Assembly (NCBI GenBank): GCA_008080945.1
Contig: VMDH01000027.1
Coordinates: 1-51,557 of the forward strand
Source of the DNA: Gammaproteobacteria bacterium
GTDB lineage: Bacteria; Pseudomonadota; Gammaproteobacteria; Magnimaribacterales; D2472
DNA length: 51,557 nt
Direction: 5' to 3'
The notes below the pieces were generated by a model. It was not told where the DNA came from and searched no databases. It saw only the letters and a list, made by a program, of their open reading frames with translations. The translations under genes and the position numbers were made by a program. Shown piece after piece: positions 5,999 to 50,450 of the stretch (position 1 is the first letter of the stretch; every line of letters starts with the position of its first letter).

Positions 5999-6027
5999 AT
6001 AAGGGCCCATCTGGGCCCTTATTTTTT
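5999..6027 (+). terminator. Intrinsic terminator after katG
   Basis: ATAAGGGCCC-ATCT-GGGCCCTTAT hairpin followed by a T-run. Confidence 0.85.
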
Positions 6028-6068
6028 GCCAACTTTGATGAAATGACATTGTCTTGTATTATGCAATT

Positions 6069-6548
6069 ATGAAGATCGCAATTTATCCTGGTTCATTTGA
6101 TCCGCTGACATTTGGTCATATAGATATTCTTGAGAGAGCAGCATCTCTATTTGATAAAGTGATTGTCGGAGTTGCAGAGAGCAAAGCAAAGAAACCTCTT
6201 TTCACAGTTGATGAGAGGCTGGCCTTGATTGATGAAATGTTTGCAGATAATGACAAGATTGAAAGTTTAGGCTATTCAGAAAAGCTCACCGTAGATCTTG
6301 CTAGAGAAAATAATGCTATTGCCATCATAAGAGGGTTGAGAGCTGTTGCTGATTTTGAGTATGAATTTCAGTTAGCAACTATGAATAGATCTCTTGCACC
6401 GGATATTGAAAGTATATTCTTTACACCTAAAGATACTTTAATTTATGTTTCTTCAAGCTTGGTAAAAGAGATCGCACAATTCGGAGGCGATGTTACCCGA
6501 TTTGTTCCCAAGCATGTCGTTAGCGCCTTAGAGAAGAAATTTACCTAA
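6069..6548 (+). CDS. coaD: Phosphopantetheine adenylyltransferase
   Basis: YPGSFDPLTFGH, RGLR and SSSLVKE motifs. ATG at 6069 preferred over the TTG at 6054. Confidence 0.95.
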   Translation: MKIAIYPGSFDPLTFGHIDILERAASLFDKVIVGVAESKAKKPLFTVDERLALIDEMFADNDKIESLGYSEKLTVDLARENNAIAIIRGLRAVADFEYEFQLATMNRSLAPDIESIFFTPKDTLIYVSSSLVKEIAQFGGDVTRFVPKHVVSALEKKFT

Positions 6549-7356
6549 GTTTTTGGCATTTGTTGCATAGAAAGCTTGCTCTTTGCCCAACCACTATTCT
6601 ACTAATTGAGTTTGCACAGTTAGGACAAGGCTGATTATCATTTCCATAAACTTTGAGCTTAATTTTAAAATACCCTTTATTACCTTCTGGACTATAAAAG
6701 TCCTTTAATGTGGTGCCCCCCAAGGCTATGGCTTTCTTTAATACTTGTTTAATGGCTTTCACTAGTTTATCTATCTCAGTATTTTTTAACTTATTGCCTG
6801 ATGTCATCGGATGAACATTTGAGATAAACAGAGCTTCATTAGCATAAATATTCCCAACGCCAACAACCACGTGTTGGTTCATGATTAAATTTTTAATGGC
6901 TGCATTAGATTTAGAGATTTTTTCTTGTAAGTAGCTTGCACTAAAATTAGTTGATAAAGGTTCTGGACCAAGTTGTCTATCAAAATCTCTATAGGCTTCT
7001 TTGCTTAAGATTTTAAAATAACCAAACTTCCGAGTATCGTTAAATACGATGCTCTTGTCTTGGAAATGAAAGACTATATGGTCATGTTTTTCTATCCTAT
7101 TGCTGCTTGCTTCTTGGATGCGTAATGTCCCGGTCATACCTAAATGCAACAAATGAAAGAAATCTGAAAATTCTAGGACAATACATTTTGCTCTCCTAAA
7201 TATCTTTTCAACTACAAGGTTCTCTAATGCATGAATATTTTTAGTATCTAATTTCCAACGTAAGTGGGGGTTGGTAACTGAAATATTTTTTAGGATCTTG
7301 CCTTCAAAACCCTTTAAAGCTCTAACAGAAGTTTCTACTTCTGGAAGCTCAGGCAT
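6541..7356 (-). CDS. mutM: Formamidopyrimidine-DNA glycosylase
   Basis: N-terminal PELPEVE, HLGMTG, GVGNIYANE, and C-terminal CPNC...CNKC zinc finger. Confidence 0.95.
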   Translation of the reverse strand: MPELPEVETSVRALKGFEGKILKNISVTNPHLRWKLDTKNIHALENLVVEKIFRRAKCIVLEFSDFFHLLHLGMTGTLRIQEASSNRIEKHDHIVFHFQDKSIVFNDTRKFGYFKILSKEAYRDFDRQLGPEPLSTNFSASYLQEKISKSNAAIKNLIMNQHVVVGVGNIYANEALFISNVHPMTSGNKLKNTEIDKLVKAIKQVLKKAIALGGTTLKDFYSPEGNKGYFKIKLKVYGNDNQPCPNCANSISRIVVGQRASFLCNKCQKLR

Positions 7357-8687
7357 TATCCTAGAAGATTGTTTATTTCTACAAGATTTTGGGGTTGCAA
7401 GGTTCCTGCAGCTAAGTGAAGTCTGAGGATAGATAACAAATAATCATACTTAGCATTGGCAAGGTTCTTTTCTGCAGAATAAAGGCTTTTTTCTGCTTGC
7501 AAAAGGTCCACAATATTTCTGGTGCCAACCTCGTAACCTACTCTGGTTGCCTCTAAGGCAGTGGTCGCTGAAATGACTGCTTGTTTTTGGGCTTTGAGAT
7601 TAGCCACCAATGTGACCACGTTTGAATACTGGGATCTAGTTTCTTGGATTACAGATCTTTCTGCAAACACGGCATCTTGTTCTGCTTGATTAAAACTTGC
7701 GTAGGCTTGTTTTCTTCTGGAATTAACAGCTCCACCTTGAAATATCGGAACGCTCCATTGCAATGCATAATTTTCTCTTTGTGTGACATCTGGAACTGTT
7801 ATTTGGAAGCTCCCTGTATTTAGCCCATCAAAGGAATATTGATTTGTTTCAGATTCTGATTTACTGGCAACAATATCTATTTTGGGTAAGTGATTGGAAG
7901 CTGCGCCGCGTGCTGCATTTTTTGCTGCTAACTTTCGCATTTGTGCTGCTTGGAGTCTAAAATTATTTTCCAGAGCTTTGCTGACCCATTCATCCTTATC
8001 TGCGGGCACTGGATTTTGGACATTTAACTCATTAACTAAACCATCAATAGAGAAAATCTCTCTACCAACAATGGCATTCAATGCCTCTCTGGCAGTATAG
8101 ATTGCTCCCTCAGCTCTTATTTTTGCTGCAAGGCTTAAATCATATGCCAGTTGAGCTTCTTGGACCTCTGTTACTGCAGATAAGCCAACTTCATATCTTT
8201 GTTTAGTTTGTTCTAGTTGCCTTTGTATGGCTTTTTCTTCTGACAATGCTGCACTTAAGTTATCTATAGAACGTAATACATTAAAGTAGGCCTCAGCTGT
8301 TCTTACAATTAGGGACTGCTGATTAAAGGCAAAATCTGCTTCAGATGCATCGGTTAAAAGTTTAGAGCGCTTATACCCAAACCATGTATCTAGTCGAAAA
8401 AGTGGTTGAGATAGTCTGGCCTGCGAAGAAAAATTATTGTATTCGTTTTGCAAGACATCATCTTCGTAGTATTCGTTCCAATTTGTTTGTCCTGAAAGTT
8501 GGATATTAGGAAGTAATTGAGCCCTGCCTTGAACTGCTATTTCTTTGTCAGCAAGGAATGAGTACTCAGCAGCTTTATACTGAGCATCATTTTCTAATGC
8601 TTCGTTATAGATATCTAGCAGGTTTTCAGCATGCAGACTGCTGACCAGAGAAAATAAGAATAGAAATTTTAACGACTGTATTTTCAA
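7356..8687 (-). CDS. tolC: TolC-family outer-membrane channel
   Basis: Signal peptide then ENLLDIY. GYEVGTRNIVDLL motif. Divergent from thiC as in other gammaproteobacteria. Confidence 0.9.
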   Translation of the reverse strand: MKIQSLKFLFLFSLVSSLHAENLLDIYNEALENDAQYKAAEYSFLADKEIAVQGRAQLLPNIQLSGQTNWNEYYEDDVLQNEYNNFSSQARLSQPLFRLDTWFGYKRSKLLTDASEADFAFNQQSLIVRTAEAYFNVLRSIDNLSAALSEEKAIQRQLEQTKQRYEVGLSAVTEVQEAQLAYDLSLAAKIRAEGAIYTAREALNAIVGREIFSIDGLVNELNVQNPVPADKDEWVSKALENNFRLQAAQMRKLAAKNAARGAASNHLPKIDIVASKSESETNQYSFDGLNTGSFQITVPDVTQRENYALQWSVPIFQGGAVNSRRKQAYASFNQAEQDAVFAERSVIQETRSQYSNVVTLVANLKAQKQAVISATTALEATRVGYEVGTRNIVDLLQAEKSLYSAEKNLANAKYDYLLSILRLHLAAGTLQPQNLVEINNLLG

Positions 8688-8691
8688 ACAA

Positions 8692-8811
8692 TTACACCTT
8701 AGTTAACTGAAAAAATATCACTAATACCATGTTAAACGATAACAGGATTGAACTAAATAAAACCAGTTCTTTATTTTTAGTAGACAATTTTTTGCTGATA
8801 AAGTTTTTCAT
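8692..8811 (-). CDS. Unannotated 39-aa single-pass membrane microprotein (MKNFISKKLSTKNKELVLFSSILLSFNMVLVIFFQLTKV)
   Basis: Hand-translated from ATG at 8811 to TAA at 8692. GGA lies 6 nt upstream of the ATG. Fills the space between the promoter and tolC. Lys-rich N-terminus plus a 19-aa hydrophobic run. Below the ORF-track size cutoff. Confidence 0.65.
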   Translation of the reverse strand: MKNFISKKLSTKNKELVLFSSILLSFNMVLVIFFQLTKV

Positions 8812-8830
8812 ATTTGATCCAAAGATGAGC

Positions 8831-8858
8831 ATCATATCTTAAATGTTTACACTGTCAA
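8831..8858 (-). promoter_or_regulatory. Sigma70 promoter TTGACA-N16-TATGAT pointing to microprotein-tolC
   Basis: Consensus -35 at 8858-8853 and near-consensus -10 at 8836-8831 on the minus strand. Confidence 0.7.
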
Positions 8859-8861
8859 CAT
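8843..8861. promoter_or_regulatory. TetR-type operator ATGTTTACA-C-TGTCAACAT overlapping the -35
   Basis: 19-bp near-perfect palindrome. Its reverse complement differs from 46280-46298 only at the central base. Confidence 0.75.
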
Positions 8862-8933
8862 CTGAATACAAACTTTACCCTTTTTAAATAGATAAATAGC
8901 CAATAGTAAGATCAAGAATGAGCTATAATTTGA

Positions 8934-10609
<1,676 letters not shown>

Positions 10610-10610
<1 letters not shown>

Positions 10611-12502
10611 TGGCAGCTGGAAACTACGATTCAAAATCTATTGAGGTTTTATCAGGGCTAGATCCGGTCAGAAAAAGACCGGGGATGTACACCGATACAT
10701 CAACTCCCAATCATTTGGTCCAAGAGGTTCTAGATAACTCAGTTGATGAAGCCTTAGCAGGCCATTGTTCCACTATAAAAATTAATCTTTTTAAGGATGG
10801 ATCCATAGAGGTTTCTGATGACGGCAGAGGCATGCCCACTGACATCCACCCTGAGCATCAAGTGTCAGGGGTGGAACTAATATTGTGCAAATTACATGCA
10901 GGAGCAAAATTTTCTGGAGAAGACTATAACTTTTCAGGCGGCTTACATGGTGTTGGGGTATCGGTAGTTAACGCGCTATCCAAAAGCCTTATAGTCACTG
11001 TAAAAAGAAATGCACAGGAACTTCAGATGGAGTTTGCTGGTGGTGAAAAAACCAAAGATTTAGTTGAAATTGGAACAGTTGGAGCGAGAAATACTGGAAC
11101 AAAAATATTATTTATTCCTGATGAGCAGTACTTTGAATCAACCAAGTTAAAAATAGCTGCTTTAAAGCATCTTCTTAAGGCCAAAGCAGTGCTATGCCCA
11201 GGTCTCAAGATCCAGTTCTTTGATGAACAGAAAGGTGAGAAAATTGAATGGGAATTTGAAAATGGTTTGGCTTCTTACTTAGCTGAATCTGAAGAATCAG
11301 ATAGCTTTCTTTTAAAAGAATCTGTGCATTGCTCCAAATTGGATAAAGAGAGCGGTCTAGATTTTATTATCAATTGGTCAGACACCAGTGTGAAAAATCC
11401 TATCAATGAAACTTACGTAAATCTAATTCCAACTGCCCAAGGCGGATCGCACCTGAGTGGGTTTAAAGCAGGCTTGCTTGATGCCTTAAAAGAATTTTGT
11501 GAATTTAGGAATTTGTTACCTAAGGGAGTCAAGTTAACCTCTGATGATACGATTGCAAATGCAAGCTTTGTAGTTTCATCTAAGCTAAAGAATCCTCAAT
11601 TTGCAGGACAAACTAAAGAACGTTTGGACTCGAAAGATCATCAATCTTTTGTTTCTGCAAGCGCTAAAGATTTCTTCAGCATTTGGTTGAATAAACACAC
11701 GGAAGAAGGAGAGTTAATTGCAGGCATTGCGATTAAGGCTGCTCAATCTAGATCTAAGGACTCCAAACAAGTTGAACGAAAAAAAGCTTATCAGGGGCCT
11801 GCCTTACCAGGAAAATTAGCAGACTGTAATAGCAATGAGTTAGATAAAACGGAATTGTTTTTAGTGGAGGGTGATTCTGCAGGAGGCTCTGCAAAGCAAG
11901 CAAGGGAGAGATCATTCCAAGCCATCATGCCTCTGAGAGGTAAAATCCTAAACACATGGGATCTTGAGAGCGATGAAATTTTGAAATCCCAAGAAATTAA
12001 AGATTTGGCCACTGCCATTGGGGTCAATCCAGGAAGCAACGAAATCAATAATCTACGCTATGGAAAAATATGCATCTTGGCTGATGCCGATTCAGATGGA
12101 TTGCATATCGCTACGCTTTTATGCGCTTTATTTTTAAGGCACTATCGCCCTTTGGTGGAAGCAGGACGCATTTATGTAGCTATGCCACCGCTTTATAGAA
12201 TAGATTGCGGTAAAGAAAAATTTTATGCACTGGACGAAAAAGAAAAGGATAGCCTGATTGATGAATTCAAGAAGAAGCAGGGCAAACCAAAAATAGATAT
12301 TCAGAGATTTAAAGGCCTTGGCGAGATGAACCCTAATCAACTTAGAGAAACTGTCATGGATAAAGCTACCCGAAGACTTGTGCAATTAACGATACAAGCC
12401 AAAGATAATGTTAATTCAACTATGGACTTACTTTTATCCAAAAAAAGAGCATCCGATAGGAAAACTTGGCTTGAGAAAAAAGGAAAAATAGCAACCCTGT
12501 GA
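10610..12502 (+). CDS. parE: DNA topoisomerase IV subunit B
   Basis: [20 protein letters not shown] (ParE type), [16 protein letters not shown] and DADSDG. Followed by parC. Confidence 0.95.
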
Positions 12503-45666: not shown

Positions 45667-46275
45667 CTAGTCTAAAAAACTGCCTAGGAAGGCATCAAGA
45701 TCTTCATTAATCTTGTCCATAACTTTTATAGCAGTGCTTGATCCAGATTCTCTGGCTTTATCAGGGATAGATTTCCTTTTATTTAGGATCATGACTAGGC
45801 CATGAGCCATTGCCCATTGCTGCATACCTTTCAGTTCAGTTTGCTCTTCATTAAGATTAAAGGCCCTGGCTATGATTTTTTTTAGAGTTTGAAAACAGGT
45901 TTCAGCGGCTTCTTCTAAGCCAGAGAATTCTGAAAAATCTTTGATACTATCGCTAAACATAAGATTATAGGTATTAAGATTATTCAATCCAAATTCTATA
46001 TATGTTCTACCAGATGCTATATGCCGCTCTCTTTCAGAGTTAAATTCACCATCTAGAACTTTTAGAAGATCCTTGGTTAGATTCTTAAAACCTTCTTCGG
46101 CTATACAAGCAAGTAATTCTTGTTTGGTTGCAAAGTGCCGATAGGGAGCAGTTTGGGAAACCTTTGCTTTTTTTGCCAGGCCGCGAAGAGAAAGAGCATC
46201 TGCTCCTTCATTCTCGCAGGTCTCACAAGCACAATCTAGCAGTACTTGTTTGAGGTTTCCGTGGTGATATTTCAT
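45667..46275 (-). CDS. TetR/AcrR-family transcriptional regulator
   Basis: YHHGNL start, LSLRGLA..AKVSQTAPYRHF HTH, and WAMAHG. Confidence 0.92.
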   Translation of the reverse strand: MKYHHGNLKQVLLDCACETCENEGADALSLRGLAKKAKVSQTAPYRHFATKQELLACIAEEGFKNLTKDLLKVLDGEFNSERERHIASGRTYIEFGLNNLNTYNLMFSDSIKDFSEFSGLEEAAETCFQTLKKIIARAFNLNEEQTELKGMQQWAMAHGLVMILNKRKSIPDKARESGSSTAIKVMDKINEDLDAFLGSFLD

Positions 46276-46279
46276 AATA

Positions 46280-46298
46280 ATGTTGACACTGTAAACAT
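46280..46298. promoter_or_regulatory. TetR operator 1 ATGTTGACA-C-TGTAAACAT, overlapping a TTGACA -35 (TAATAT at 46305-46310)
   Basis: 19-bp near-perfect palindrome between tetR and the MFP gene. Confidence 0.8.
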
Positions 46299-46308
46299 TT
46301 AATATAAT

Positions 46309-46327
46309 ATGTTTACACTGAGTACAT
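46309..46327. promoter_or_regulatory. TetR operator 2 (degenerate) ATGTTTACA-C-TGAGTACAT
   Basis: Second copy starting 29 bp after operator 1. Confidence 0.65.
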
Positions 46328-46356: not shown

Positions 46357-47379
46357 ATGAAAAGTTTATTACACACTCAACAATTCCTATCCATTTTTTT
46401 GTTAGCTAGCACCGCTATTTTTACAAATTCATTAAAGGCTTTACCAAGTTCGTTAGAGCTCTTAAATTTAAGCATCCAAGATAGTTATACCGTATCCAGG
46501 AGAATTTCTGGAAGAATGTTGCCTAAAAATCAATCCATGCTGTCTTTTGAAATTCAGGGAAGAATATTGTCTTTTCCTGCAGATATTGGAGATGCTGTAA
46601 AAGCTGGCGATGTTCTTGCATCACTAGATGCCAGCGAAATCCAGGCCAACTTTAATCAAGCTAAGGCCCAGCAAAAATTAACTAGCTTGGCTTTAGATAG
46701 ATTTAAGGATCTCAAGGAGGATGGCTTTGTATCTTCACAAGAATTGGACAGAGCTTTGGCTGAGTATGATATTGCTAGCTCTCAAGTAGAGTTTTTCTCT
46801 GTTAAATTACGTCAGTCTCAACTTATTGCTCCTTTTGATGGATTAGTGCAGCAAAGATTTTATGATCCTGGTTCAATGGTTAACCCAATGCAGCCGGTTC
46901 TTGAGCTGATTGATTCTAAGGGAGTTGAGGGGCATATTTCAGTGCCGCAAAAGTATCTAGCGTTGCTAGAGATTGGTGCAAGCTATGCATTTGATATTTC
47001 CGGTAAAACCATTAATGCAACCTTAGAACGACTTGCGCCTATGACAAATGTTGGTTCTGGGAATAGGCTGGCAATTTTTTCTTTTCCACAATTTATTGCT
47101 CCCGGGGAGGTAGTAAACCTTCTGCTTAAAACTCAAATCAAAACTATTGGAGCATGGGTTCCCCTAAGTGCACTTTCTCAAGGCAATCAAGGGCTATGGA
47201 ATATTTATACCCTTGTTGATAATCAAGATGGCAGTAAATCTGTTGCAAGAGAAATAGTTTCTTTGGAATACACAGACGGCACTTATGCCTTCATTTCAGG
47301 AACTATAAAGAGCGGGGATCAAGTTATCACTGGGGGAGCATCCAAGGTTATTGAGGGACAACGCTTCCTTAATCAATGA
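46357..47379 (+). CDS. RND efflux periplasmic adaptor (MFP)
   Basis: GD.VKAGDVLASLD lipoyl half-motif, alpha-hairpin and LIAPFDG. Confidence 0.9.
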   Translation: MKSLLHTQQFLSIFLLASTAIFTNSLKALPSSLELLNLSIQDSYTVSRRISGRMLPKNQSMLSFEIQGRILSFPADIGDAVKAGDVLASLDASEIQANFNQAKAQQKLTSLALDRFKDLKEDGFVSSQELDRALAEYDIASSQVEFFSVKLRQSQLIAPFDGLVQQRFYDPGSMVNPMQPVLELIDSKGVEGHISVPQKYLALLEIGASYAFDISGKTINATLERLAPMTNVGSGNRLAIFSFPQFIAPGEVVNLLLKTQIKTIGAWVPLSALSQGNQGLWNIYTLVDNQDGSKSVAREIVSLEYTDGTYAFISGTIKSGDQVITGGASKVIEGQRFLNQ

Positions 47380-50300
47380 AATTTTTAGACCTGCTTATTG
47401 ATCGTCCTAGAGTTTTTGCTTTGCTCTTGGCTTTTATATGTTTGGCTGGTTTTCTATCGCTAAATACTCTCCCAAGACAAGAAAATCCTGAGCTAGCCCA
47501 ACGCTGGTCAACAGTTCAATCCGTCTATCGGGGAGCATCACCCATTAGAATTAATACGCAGGTCTTAGATCCACTTGAGGCAAAACTTAGAGAAGTTCAA
47601 GAGATTAAAGAGATCCAGTCCGTTGCATCGGAAGGTTTTGCATCCACTGCAATTGAATTAAAGGATACTGTAGACCCAGAGCTTATTGAGCAAGTATGGT
47701 CGGAAGTACAAGATAAAATTGATCAGGCAAAATTCTTACTTCCTGCCGAAGTGGATCCCCAATTAATCAGATCCAGTGGTCCGCCAACCACATTGCTTTA
47801 TGCAATCAACTGGAATGGAGAGGGAGAAACCCCAATCATTTTATTATCACGAGTTGCAGAAGATCTAAAGAACAGACTGGCATATAGCGGTGCAACGGAT
47901 AAAACTTTTCTATACGGGGCTGCTAATGAAGAGGTGATTATTTCAATCGACAGCCAAAAGTTATCTTTGCTTGACTTAACCTTTACAGAGATAGCCAACA
48001 TTTTAAATTCATTTGATAACAAAAAACCCATCGGGATCAATACCTCTGGCTCATCCCAGATCTTAATAAAATCTCAAGATAATTTGGAATCATTGGACGA
48101 GATAAAGCAAATTCCAATCAAGACCATCTCAGGCTCCGAAATAATTAGACTTGAAGATATCGCATCATCTATTCAGCTCTTGCCTCAAACTCCATCTGAA
48201 GAAATTATCTTACATAATGGTAAGAGATCTGTTTTAGTTGATATTAGGGGTGCCTTTCGTCAGCGCATGGATTCTTATGCATCTCTTATAGAAGATACTG
48301 TTGAAGATTTTCGCTCAACGACCCCTCCAGAGATCAGTATTGTGAAAATCTACAATGAATCTCTCTTTTTAGAGAATAAATTCACAGACCTCTCGGTAAG
48401 CATATTTTTTGCTACTAACATTGTAATTTTGCTGAGTTATTTATTGCTGGGTCTGCGCTCAGCTTTAATTGTAGGGATCACGCTGCCTTTAACAATTTTT
48501 TTAGTTTTATTTGGATGCAAGGTCATTGGTTTGCCATTGCATCAAACATCCATGACTGGAATTATTATTGCGCTTGGTTTGTTGATTGATAACTCAATTA
48601 TTATGGTTGAGGATTATAAATTCAGAAGAAAATCTGGACATCCTCCTAGGGCATCTGCGCATCTGAGTTTGCAGCATCTTTGGATACCATTAGCAGCCGC
48701 TACTGCCACAACCGCATTTGCTTTCTTCCCCATAGTAGCTGGGAAGGGGCCCAGTGCAGAATTTGTCGGAGGCATGGGTATTACAGTTATCTTATCAATT
48801 ACTGCTTCATTCTTTCTTGCTTTATTTGTTGTTCCAGTCTTTCTTAATCTCATTGAAAAGGTATCTTTTTTTCAAGGCAAAGATCTTTTCAGTGAGGGAT
48901 ACTCCAATCCTGATTTAACCAATGCTTACCGAAACTTTCTCCAATGGTCTTTCAGTAAACCAAAAAGAGCAATTCTGATAGCATTCGTATTGCCAGGGCT
49001 TGGGTTTCTTGCATTCCCTTTTTTAAAACAAGATTTCTTTCCTGAGCTTGATAGGCCTATGTTTAAAGTTCTGGTTGAGCTTCCTGAAAATACTTCTGCG
49101 GAGGGTTCTGAGCAACGCCTGAAAGAACTCTCAAAAGATATTAATGAAACTCTTGGACTTGAAGTCCAGGATGAAGTTTGGTTCGTTGGCAGAAAAATGC
49201 CAAGAGTTTTATACAACGTTATTGGTGGTGATTCTCCCTTGGGATCCAATAATGTTGCCGAAGGTTTTTTTATGGTTAAGAGCTACACGGCTATGATGGA
49301 AAGAATTCCAAGTCTTGGAAGAGAGCTTGCTAAAAATAATCCTGACTTAAAAGTTATTACGGATAAGTTCGATTCAGGTCCCCCAGTCTTTGCAAGCATT
49401 GAATATAGGATTCTTGGCGATGATATTGAAATCTTAAGAGAGCTTGGTCAACAGTTTGAGTTGATTCTTTCAGATGCACCAGATGTTTTTTTAACGAAGT
49501 CAGATTTGTCTGCGATCACCACAAATTTTGAGTTTTCGTTTAATAATGAAAATATCAGCTTAAGCCCCATTGATGGATCGCTCATATTAAACGAATTATC
49601 TATCTCAAATGAGGGCCGCTATGTTGGAACCTTAATTCAAGGATCCAAAGAGATTCCAATAAAAATATTGAGTAATCAAAGCTCTAATCCTATTCAAGGC
49701 ATAGAGGATCTATCATTTCCAGGCTTATCCGAAACCCAAAATATTTCCTCTTTTGGCGATTTTAAAGTTACTAGCAGACCTAATTTCATAAACCGATTTC
49801 AAGGTATAAAGCAAAACGGAGTGAGGGCATGGATTTGGCCTGATAAGCTTGCCTCAGATACTGAAAAAATAATTCAAGAAGCTGTTACAAATTTTAGCAA
49901 TGATTTGCCTGAGGGCTATCAATTGGTATTGTCAGGAGAGGCTGATGCTCGTTCAAGATCTCAATCTAATTTATTCTCAACAGCTTTTTTATTTATTATT
50001 TTGATTATTGTATCTTTGGTTGCTGCATTGAATTCATTTAGGCAGGCCGGATTAATTTTAAGTGTAGCTATCTTATGCGTTGGCTTAGCTTTTGTTGGTC
50101 TAACAATCGGGCAAGCTAATTTTGGTTTCATTGGTCTAGTTGGAGCAGTAGGCTTAATTGGTCTTTCTATTAATGATTCAATTGTCGTGCTGTCTCACAT
50201 TAAAGAAGCAAACCAAAATAATAATCTGGACTTGAATGGTTTAGTTGAAGTAGTAATCCGTTCTACTCGACATGTTCTAACCACTACAGTGACAACTCTG

Positions 50301-50450
50301 GGAGGTTTTTTACCTCTTTTAATAACTAGCATCTTCTTTCAGCCGCTTGCATGGGCGATGAGTGGTGGAATTTTTGGAGCAACAATTATTGCCCTTCTTT
50401 ATATTCCTGGAGCTTATGTAGCATCTAAAGGACTCCATAAAACAGTCTAA
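47376..50450 (+). CDS. RND-family efflux permease
   Basis: 1024 aa with the RND two-repeat topology. ALGLLIDNSIIMVE (TM4) and RHVLTTTVTTLGGFLPL (TM11). Confidence 0.92.
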   Translation: MKFLDLLIDRPRVFALLLAFICLAGFLSLNTLPRQENPELAQRWSTVQSVYRGASPIRINTQVLDPLEAKLREVQEIKEIQSVASEGFASTAIELKDTVDPELIEQVWSEVQDKIDQAKFLLPAEVDPQLIRSSGPPTTLLYAINWNGEGETPIILLSRVAEDLKNRLAYSGATDKTFLYGAANEEVIISIDSQKLSLLDLTFTEIANILNSFDNKKPIGINTSGSSQILIKSQDNLESLDEIKQIPIKTISGSEIIRLEDIASSIQLLPQTPSEEIILHNGKRSVLVDIRGAFRQRMDSYASLIEDTVEDFRSTTPPEISIVKIYNESLFLENKFTDLSVSIFFATNIVILLSYLLLGLRSALIVGITLPLTIFLVLFGCKVIGLPLHQTSMTGIIIALGLLIDNSIIMVEDYKFRRKSGHPPRASAHLSLQHLWIPLAAATATTAFAFFPIVAGKGPSAEFVGGMGITVILSITASFFLALFVVPVFLNLIEKVSFFQGKDLFSEGYSNPDLTNAYRNFLQWSFSKPKRAILIAFVLPGLGFLAFPFLKQDFFPELDRPMFKVLVELPENTSAEGSEQRLKELSKDINETLGLEVQDEVWFVGRKMPRVLYNVIGGDSPLGSNNVAEGFFMVKSYTAMMERIPSLGRELAKNNPDLKVITDKFDSGPPVFASIEYRILGDDIEILRELGQQFELILSDAPDVFLTKSDLSAITTNFEFSFNNENISLSPIDGSLILNELSISNEGRYVGTLIQGSKEIPIKILSNQSSNPIQGIEDLSFPGLSETQNISSFGDFKVTSRPNFINRFQGIKQNGVRAWIWPDKLASDTEKIIQEAVTNFSNDLPEGYQLVLSGEADARSRSQSNLFSTAFLFIILIIVSLVAALNSFRQAGLILSVAILCVGLAFVGLTIGQANFGFIGLVGAVGLIGLSINDSIVVLSHIKEANQNNNLDLNGLVEVVIRSTRHVLTTTVTTLGGFLPLLITSIFFQPLAWAMSGGIFGATIIALLYIPGAYVASKGLHKTV

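Follow-up and report, generated by a model that had tools for sequence, protein, structure and literature searches.

TetR-controlled efflux systems and the SAR86 locus

The divergent tetR/tetA region of transposon Tn10 carries two tandem operators, tetO1 and tetO2, and the TetR protein of Tn10 controls this one locus only. MexL of Pseudomonas aeruginosa, the TetR-family repressor of the MexJK pump, binds other promoters as well according to the available text of PMC11865548. In Escherichia coli, the unlinked acrAB, tolC and acrZ genes of the mar/sox/rob regulon are placed under the site of a single regulator in the accessible portions of PMC11762307 and PMC7267776. The mechanism considered here, a TetR repressor acting at palindromic operators, is a textbook one. 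When the literature on SAR86 efflux (by title) and on TetR together with tolC was searched, no report that places a TetR operator at an unlinked tolC gene was found, a result that is no proof of absence in print.

The window analyzed here is the whole of contig VMDH01000027.1 (51,557 nt; positions are 1-based and refer to the forward strand), which belongs to the draft genome of an uncultured marine SAR86 bacterium (892,612 bp in 82 contigs, 70% complete, 37% G+C). A minus-strand gene at 45667-46275 encodes a 202-aa protein that is a TetR family member by both size (~200 aa) and domains: it combines a TetR_N helix-turn-helix (PF00440, 36.8 bits; cut-off 24) with a WHG-type TetR_C_33 domain (PF13305, 32.4 bits; cut-off 26.8), and residues W154, H158 and G159 are kept in the TetR alignment (A1). 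When its profile was compared with structures, the nearest solved relatives were 3on2 (3.4e-25) and 3cjd (2.2e-17), both of which are uncharacterised. The tetR gene is divergent from a gene encoding a periplasmic adaptor (MFP), with two operators (O1 and O2) between the two genes, and it thus has the setting of the local regulator of an RND operon.

The adaptor gene (46357-47379, plus strand) encodes HlyD_3 and HlyD_D23 domains and scores 163 bits with TIGR01730 (cut-off 95). It is followed by the gene for an RND inner-membrane transporter of the MexK/TriC type (47376-50450, plus strand; ACR_tran, 1.1e-113), whose place in the RND family is indicated by a PF00873 match of 381 bits over residues 4-1016. 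The best solved relatives of this protein are MexK (5.8e-73) and 6vej (5.3e-64), and its scores with the RND equivalog models of named pumps are far under their cut-offs. The initial annotation described this cassette as having no gene for an outer-membrane factor, and this is borne out by the ORFs that come next, which encode a 144-aa protein without a family and a protein with a weak cupin match.

The channel gene, tolC, is found at 7356-8687 on the minus strand, starts with TTG and has fpg downstream and thiC divergent from it. Its product belongs to the TolC family (Pfam OEP, 2.3e-59, with PF02321 matched in two stretches; TIGR01844, 305.4 bits, above the cut-off of 225). It was the sole Pfam OEP match in the source genome, at 70% completeness, and a single OEP gene (tolC) was also found in the related genomes G002, G003, G006 and G010. 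Each of these four genomes and the source genome has two full-length RND genes; the second RND gene of the source genome (contig C15, 4399-7455) has no operator nearby. As a single OEP gene accompanies two RND pumps, TolC must serve more than the TetR-linked pump, and because tolC is also needed by the second RND pump, repression at tolC would probably be partial. TetR control of tolC, with one operator compared with two at the pump, is probably a modulation over a basal level.

Compared with Tn10, the tetR/MFP-RND region is similar in having two 19-bp palindromes a few turns apart over divergent promoters, an arrangement that would combine autoregulation with control of an export gene, and different in that extra operator copies are found at the unlinked tolC gene and at other operons and in that the ligand domain at the C-terminus differs in type (TetR_C_33). 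With mexJK it shares a divergent TetR gene, an MFP-RND operon lacking its own channel (MexJK borrows the unlinked OprM or OpmH) and a regulator with putative further promoters, and among solved structures MexK is the one nearest to the RND protein. However, the MexL motif given in the available text of PMC11865548 is TGTAATTT, whereas the operator consensus here is ATGTTKACAnTGTMAACAT, so the regulator does not have the motif of a MexL ortholog; the same text mentions no MexL site at oprM or opmH. The likeness to the mar/sox/rob system is that a pump, a channel and a small membrane protein are (here putatively) raised jointly. In the accessible portions of PMC11762307 and PMC7267776, MarA, SoxS and Rob are AraC-type activators with a marbox, in contrast to the local TetR repressor predicted here, and AcrR, the E. 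coli TetR repressor, is described as a repressor of acrAB only. A further difference is that the SAR86 small membrane protein has no detectable similarity to AcrZ.

Operators and their distribution among relatives

The initial annotation proposed that a single type of operator-promoter module is shared by tolC and the tetR/MFP-RND control region, based on 31 bp of the minus strand (8861-8831) and 31 bp of the plus strand (46280-46310). Both stretches read letter for letter as quoted, and a count of identical positions gives the claimed 27/31, with differences at positions 10, 24, 28 and 29. The 19-bp palindrome said to cover TTGACA is present at 8843-8861 and 46280-46298, in an imperfect form in which 8/9 arm positions pair, and a promoter scan recovered the claimed TTGACA-16-TAnnnT elements, which read TATGAT at tolC and TAATAT at MFP-RND. 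The operator at 8843-8861 is of the O1 type, matches the pattern of the initial annotation exactly and lies over the -35 hexamer of a sigma-70-like promoter, TTGACA-16-TATGAT (8831-8858, minus strand, 11/12 matches). This promoter precedes both a microprotein ORF and tolC and is the sole promoter-like site found by the scan in 8600-9000.

At the pump, O1 (46280-46298) lies over the -35 of another sigma-70-like promoter, TTGACA-16-TAATAT (46283-46310, plus strand, 10/12 matches), and is 4 bp from the tetR start codon; it is conserved in all 25 relatives' loci. A second, weaker operator, O2 (46309-46327), is absent from the initial annotation and has 3 mismatches to its pattern, and it matches the degenerate family pattern, ATGTTNACNNTGNNNACAT, exactly. 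O2 lies just past the pump -10, with its centre 29 bp from the O1 centre. No tetR promoter scored above the threshold of the promoter scan; by eye, a TATAAT can be read under O2 on the tetR strand (46331-46326). In many genera (L007-L022), a conserved GTCAAAT or TCAAAT is found ~40 nt past O2, immediately ahead of the start codon that opens the pump operon, and this element is also found before the microprotein start here (8812-8818). It might serve as a translation signal or represent an operator half-site.

With up to 3 mismatches allowed, the pattern of the initial annotation has 3 matches in the window, a number that was reached by 0/100 dinucleotide shuffles (mean 0.03). A scan of the source genome identified three strong sites, namely the tolC site, O1 and a site on contig C5 (5795-5813) before a di-iron gene, with O2 as the next best, and these four were the only intergenic matches at ≤ 3 mismatches. 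All remaining matches in the genome had at least 3 mismatches and were intragenic; two such matches with 3 mismatches (C36:5916 and C59:2846) were dismissed as chance. The degenerate pattern ATGTTNACNNTGNNNACAT has 4 exact matches in the source genome, at the same four sites, with 7 matches at ≤ 1 mismatch and 27 at ≤ 2, and a reversed control pattern gave 1 match across 41 genomes. The initial annotation had raised the prospect of a global regulator should the motif occur at many unrelated promoters. At most about 5 loci per genome were found, and so few sites argue against a global regulator.

The co-occurrence of motif and regulator was surveyed in 41 genomes (the source genome and 40 relatives from families f1-f4), and the motif was found to travel with TetR across these families, as would be expected from the initial annotation. 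A TetR ortholog was identified in 22/24 genomes of f1 (the family of the source genome, which is not counted here), 0/6 of f2, 2/5 of f3 and 0/5 of f4. The exact motif was present in 24/24 f1 genomes, as one stray match in f2, once in f3, where it adjoins the TetR gene of G032, and in none of the 5 f4 genomes. Two f1 genomes, G012 (91% complete) and G015 (87% complete), have a tolC site, yet a search for the TetR ortholog came up empty in both. Since the sister genomes carry tetR on another contig or at the end of one, we infer that the missing genes of G012 and G015 reflect assembly gaps.

In 25/25 relatives' loci, tandem palindromes are found immediately upstream of the gene for the TetR ortholog, with a conserved spacing of 27-32 bp. 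When species-representative loci from named records were tallied (80 loci; ≤ 2 mismatches in the 250 bp ahead of tetR), at least one site was present in 76/80 and at least two in 75/80. The loci with sites include those of Porticoccaceae, Oceanobacter and Bacterioplanoides, and 73/80 loci have an MFP homolog on the divergent side of tetR. Judging from these sequence comparisons, the 19-bp palindrome is likely to be the operator of the WHG-type TetR encoded at 45667-46275, which would bind it, act there as a repressor and presumably respond to a ligand.

An exact operator was found ≤ 400 bp upstream of tolC, on either strand, in 20/25 f1 genomes. The site is kept in every genome of g1 (3/3), g2 (1/1), g3 (1/1), g4 (3/3), g5 (3/3), g6 (3/3), g7 (3/3) and g10 (2/2). 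The five genomes without it are all 3 of g8 (0/3) and two of g9 (G017 and G024, leaving 1/3), so the tolC palindrome is retained in 9/10 f1 genera. As a control, the coding sequence of tolC and the DNA downstream of it were scanned in the same 30 loci (84,096 bp in total), with 0 matches at ≤ 1 mismatch. In f2, a sister family without this TetR, no site was found upstream of tolC in 5/5 loci at ≤ 1 mismatch. Among the f3 genomes, TetR-positive G026 has a 1-mismatch site at -46 of tolC, TetR-positive G032 has a doubtful site only, and the three TetR-less genomes have no tolC site at ≤ 3 mismatches. Neither Oceanobacter nor Bacterioplanoides has a site near tolC at ≤ 1 mismatch, so this TetR family is not linked to tolC in all its members.

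The position of the tolC site varies. Outside g1, sites are found between -26 and -64 relative to the start and mostly belong to the ATGTTTACA type, and in the promoters read there (e.g., L034) the operator sits past the -10, between the -10 and the start codon. Only in g1, the genus with the arrangement seen in the window, is the site found at -171 to -177, where, as a TTGACA (O1) type operator, it provides the -35, with the microprotein gene between it and tolC. All 19 bp are identical at tolC in 3/3 g1 genomes, and the neighbouring microprotein gene shows differences of 36-51% at its synonymous sites. Comparative genomics thus supports the proposal of the initial annotation that the TetR also represses the microprotein and tolC, with both binding and repression being predicted from sequence.

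Other features were observed in the tolC upstream regions. In G017 and G024 (L032 and L033), an apparent decayed operator was noticed by eye, with its left half nearly intact and its right half gone. In f2, a different palindrome, AGGTGTTATA...ACTAATACACCT, is found just before tolC in 5/5 loci (L054-L058). A second conserved inverted repeat, TGTAAAGTTTACTTTACA, is found in tolC promoters of g3, g7, g8 and g10 (L034, L035, L037, L041, L045 and L049-L052). As its occurrence includes g8, where tolC has no TetR operator, this repeat may be the site of another regulator.

In every SAR86 genome with tolC and tetR on one contig, the two genes are separated by 31-39 kb (37 kb here). SAR92 clade bacterium H231 has them in one cluster, with the gene order RND, MFP, two operators, tetR, tolC. 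Clusters of this kind, with tolC directly after tetR, were found in 4/80 loci, all of them Porticoccaceae-like. The split regulon of SAR86 may be such a cluster that was broken up and retained its operator, with cluster first and split second being the presumed order of events.

The small membrane protein ahead of tolC

The ORF between the operator and tolC (8692-8811, minus strand, stop codon included) was read from the sequence as encoding a 39-aa single-pass small membrane protein with a lysine-rich N-terminus and one hydrophobic helix. It ends 4 nt ahead of the tolC TTG start, a gap that suggests translational coupling. Homologs were found in only two settings, always behind an operator: before tolC in 3/3 g1 genomes and, in 7/80 species loci that represent a g9-type lineage, between the O1/O2 operators and the MFP gene, where the ORF is 35 aa long. 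The g9 genomes G017 and G024, whose microprotein gene is part of the RND operon, have a tolC gene without an operator. The microprotein alignment (A2) has 10 invariant residues, including N13, S25, N27 and Q35 within the helix, and dN/dS values of 0.08-0.38 in 13/13 pairs indicate purifying selection. Together, the invariant residues and low dN/dS argue that the ORF is translated into a peptide under selection and did not arise by chance.

The microprotein has no Pfam family at E ≤ 0.01 and no named Protein Atlas cluster above 0.82, and it is possibly a new small protein. By sequence it is not a member of the AcrZ family, and its likeness to AcrZ is one of functional analogy only. A complex prediction for the microprotein (A2) and residues 330-1024 of the RND protein (A3) gave a score of 0.01 relative to a mark of 0.32, a result that speaks neither for nor against an interaction. 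We infer that the tolC control region of g1, the only genus with thiC between tolC and parE, was rebuilt, possibly from a g9-type RND-operon leader.

In other SAR86 genera, parE, not thiC, is divergent from tolC. In the window, ~80 bp (8862-8942) lie between the operator and the start codon of thiC (8943-10610). Searched with Rfam, 8400-9300 matched no family, nor did a TPP riboswitch turn up ahead of thiC at E ≤ 1.

Metatranscriptome contigs from 4 runs were compared with the region 6000-11000. They cover tolC, and contigs of this kind give neither transcript starts nor transcript levels. Among the 32 contig pieces listed (there are 292 further pieces), none spans tolC, the microprotein ORF and the predicted start. 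In runs X3 and X5, contigs leave the window sequence at 8736/8737, within the microprotein ORF, and continue into adapter sequence; those of runs X1 and X2 start at 8946, again with adapter sequence adjoining. The contig ends at 8736/8737 and 8946 may be RNA ends or artefacts, and as hints of RNA ends they are weak at best. Those at 8736/8737 may reflect a second 5' end within the microprotein ORF.

Predicted regulon, alternative explanations and significance

The operator on contig C5 (5795-5813) starts 3 nt past the -10 of a TTGCCT-17-TATAAT promoter. The gene behind it encodes a 367-aa AurF-like di-iron protein, identified by Pfam (PF11583, 2.1e-13) and by Protein Atlas clusters as well, and a di-iron gene with an operator is found in 10 genomes from 5 genera. 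Based on the positions of the sites, the source genome probably has a small regulon of three promoters, those of tetR/MFP-RND, microprotein-tolC and the di-iron operon. According to the initial annotation, one ligand would induce all pump parts. The operator shared by the pump and tolC agrees with this, while the regulon turns out to be wider than the pump parts, and the ligand is a presumed one.

In certain relatives the motif is found at a further locus. G003, G004, G005, G014 and G019 have one or two operators before genes encoding a ~95-aa secreted PAN-domain protein and a patatin-like phospholipase, and G010 and G011 have a single operator before the PAN protein. The PAN/patatin locus sits behind genes for a GMC oxidoreductase and a rhodanese, and in G004 (L089, the only locus for which this stretch was read) the ORF after it by eye appears to encode a TonB-dependent-receptor-like protein. 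It was not found in the source genome, and the two sister genomes in the genus lack a fourth site; the locus may be absent from this genus or may lie within the missing 30% of the genome. A patatin/rhodanese/flavin-oxidoreductase locus near a TonB receptor is described by Dupont et al. 2011 in the available text of PMC3358033, and the PAN/patatin locus of the relatives matches it. From this match, a lipid-type ligand for the TetR can be suggested, as a speculation.

We propose that ligand-free TetR dimers would sit on the operators and exclude RNA polymerase. In the pump control region, two operators would be occupied, one over the -35 and one over the -10/+1, and at the tolC promoter a single operator over the -35. 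A hydrophobic ligand, probably a substrate of the pump and possibly a lipid breakdown product, would free the TetR, upon which the adaptor, transporter, channel and small membrane protein would rise together. Taken as a whole, the observations are best explained by a TetR regulon with an unlinked tolC gene, an explanation that we regard as likely to be correct.

It is conceivable that the palindrome is bound by another regulator and that its adjacency to tetR is incidental, given that binding of the operator by TetR is deduced from sequence and that G012 and G015 have motif sites and no TetR ortholog was found in them. These two genomes are incomplete, however, and their sisters have tetR on other contigs or at a contig end. 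Tandem sites upstream of the TetR ortholog in 25/25 loci, and at least one site in 76/80 loci from several families, make an incidental association very improbable, as does the distribution of the motif in families lacking this TetR, where it is absent genome-wide in 5/5 f4 genomes and absent from tolC in 5/5 f2 loci. The g1 copy at tolC could, in turn, be the by-product of the copying of a strong promoter, with no regulatory function, as its module resembles the pump O1 promoter (27/31) and the region has been rearranged, with thiC between tolC and parE in g1 only. Such an origin would not account for the retention of the palindrome at tolC in 9/10 f1 genera at differing promoter positions, from which it follows that the operator, not the promoter, is conserved. 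It is also at odds with the identity of the 19 bp in 3/3 g1 genomes despite 36-51% synonymous divergence nearby, and we consider it extremely improbable.

Operators over the -35 or past the -10 normally exclude RNA polymerase, as in repression of the TetR and LacI types. The site covers the -35 here and lies between the -10 and the start codon in other genera, and this placement makes it quite improbable that the TetR is an activator or dual regulator at tolC, as MexL is at phz promoters. Activation would fit with the continued expression of tolC that the second RND pump must have, and MexL activates other promoters with a site upstream of the -10 according to the available text of PMC11865548. 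Repression of both the pump operon and the unlinked tolC by one TetR is the reading that we retain.

A more far-reaching joint reading can be offered, tentatively, as one that we think is rather unlikely in its entirety. The 35-39-aa protein would be a new AcrZ-like (sequence-unrelated) pump subunit, its gene would have moved together with the O1-type operator-promoter from the RND operon to tolC, and the regulon would be a lipid/fatty-acid-responsive circuit. Members of this circuit would be the RND pump, the sole TolC and the di-iron oxygenase, joined in relatives by the PAN protein and the patatin lipase beside a TonB-dependent receptor. If this is true, SAR86 could feed on algal lipids while exporting toxic products.

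Few uncultured bacteria of the surface ocean are as abundant as those of SAR86, and, to our knowledge, almost nothing is known of their gene regulation. A compact TetR regulon of the kind predicted here would provide a culture-free handle on regulation in SAR86. In a streamlined genome with two RND pumps, it would tie the sole outer-membrane channel to one of them, and its link in relatives to a patatin/TonB-receptor lipid locus suggests what the purpose of the pump may be.
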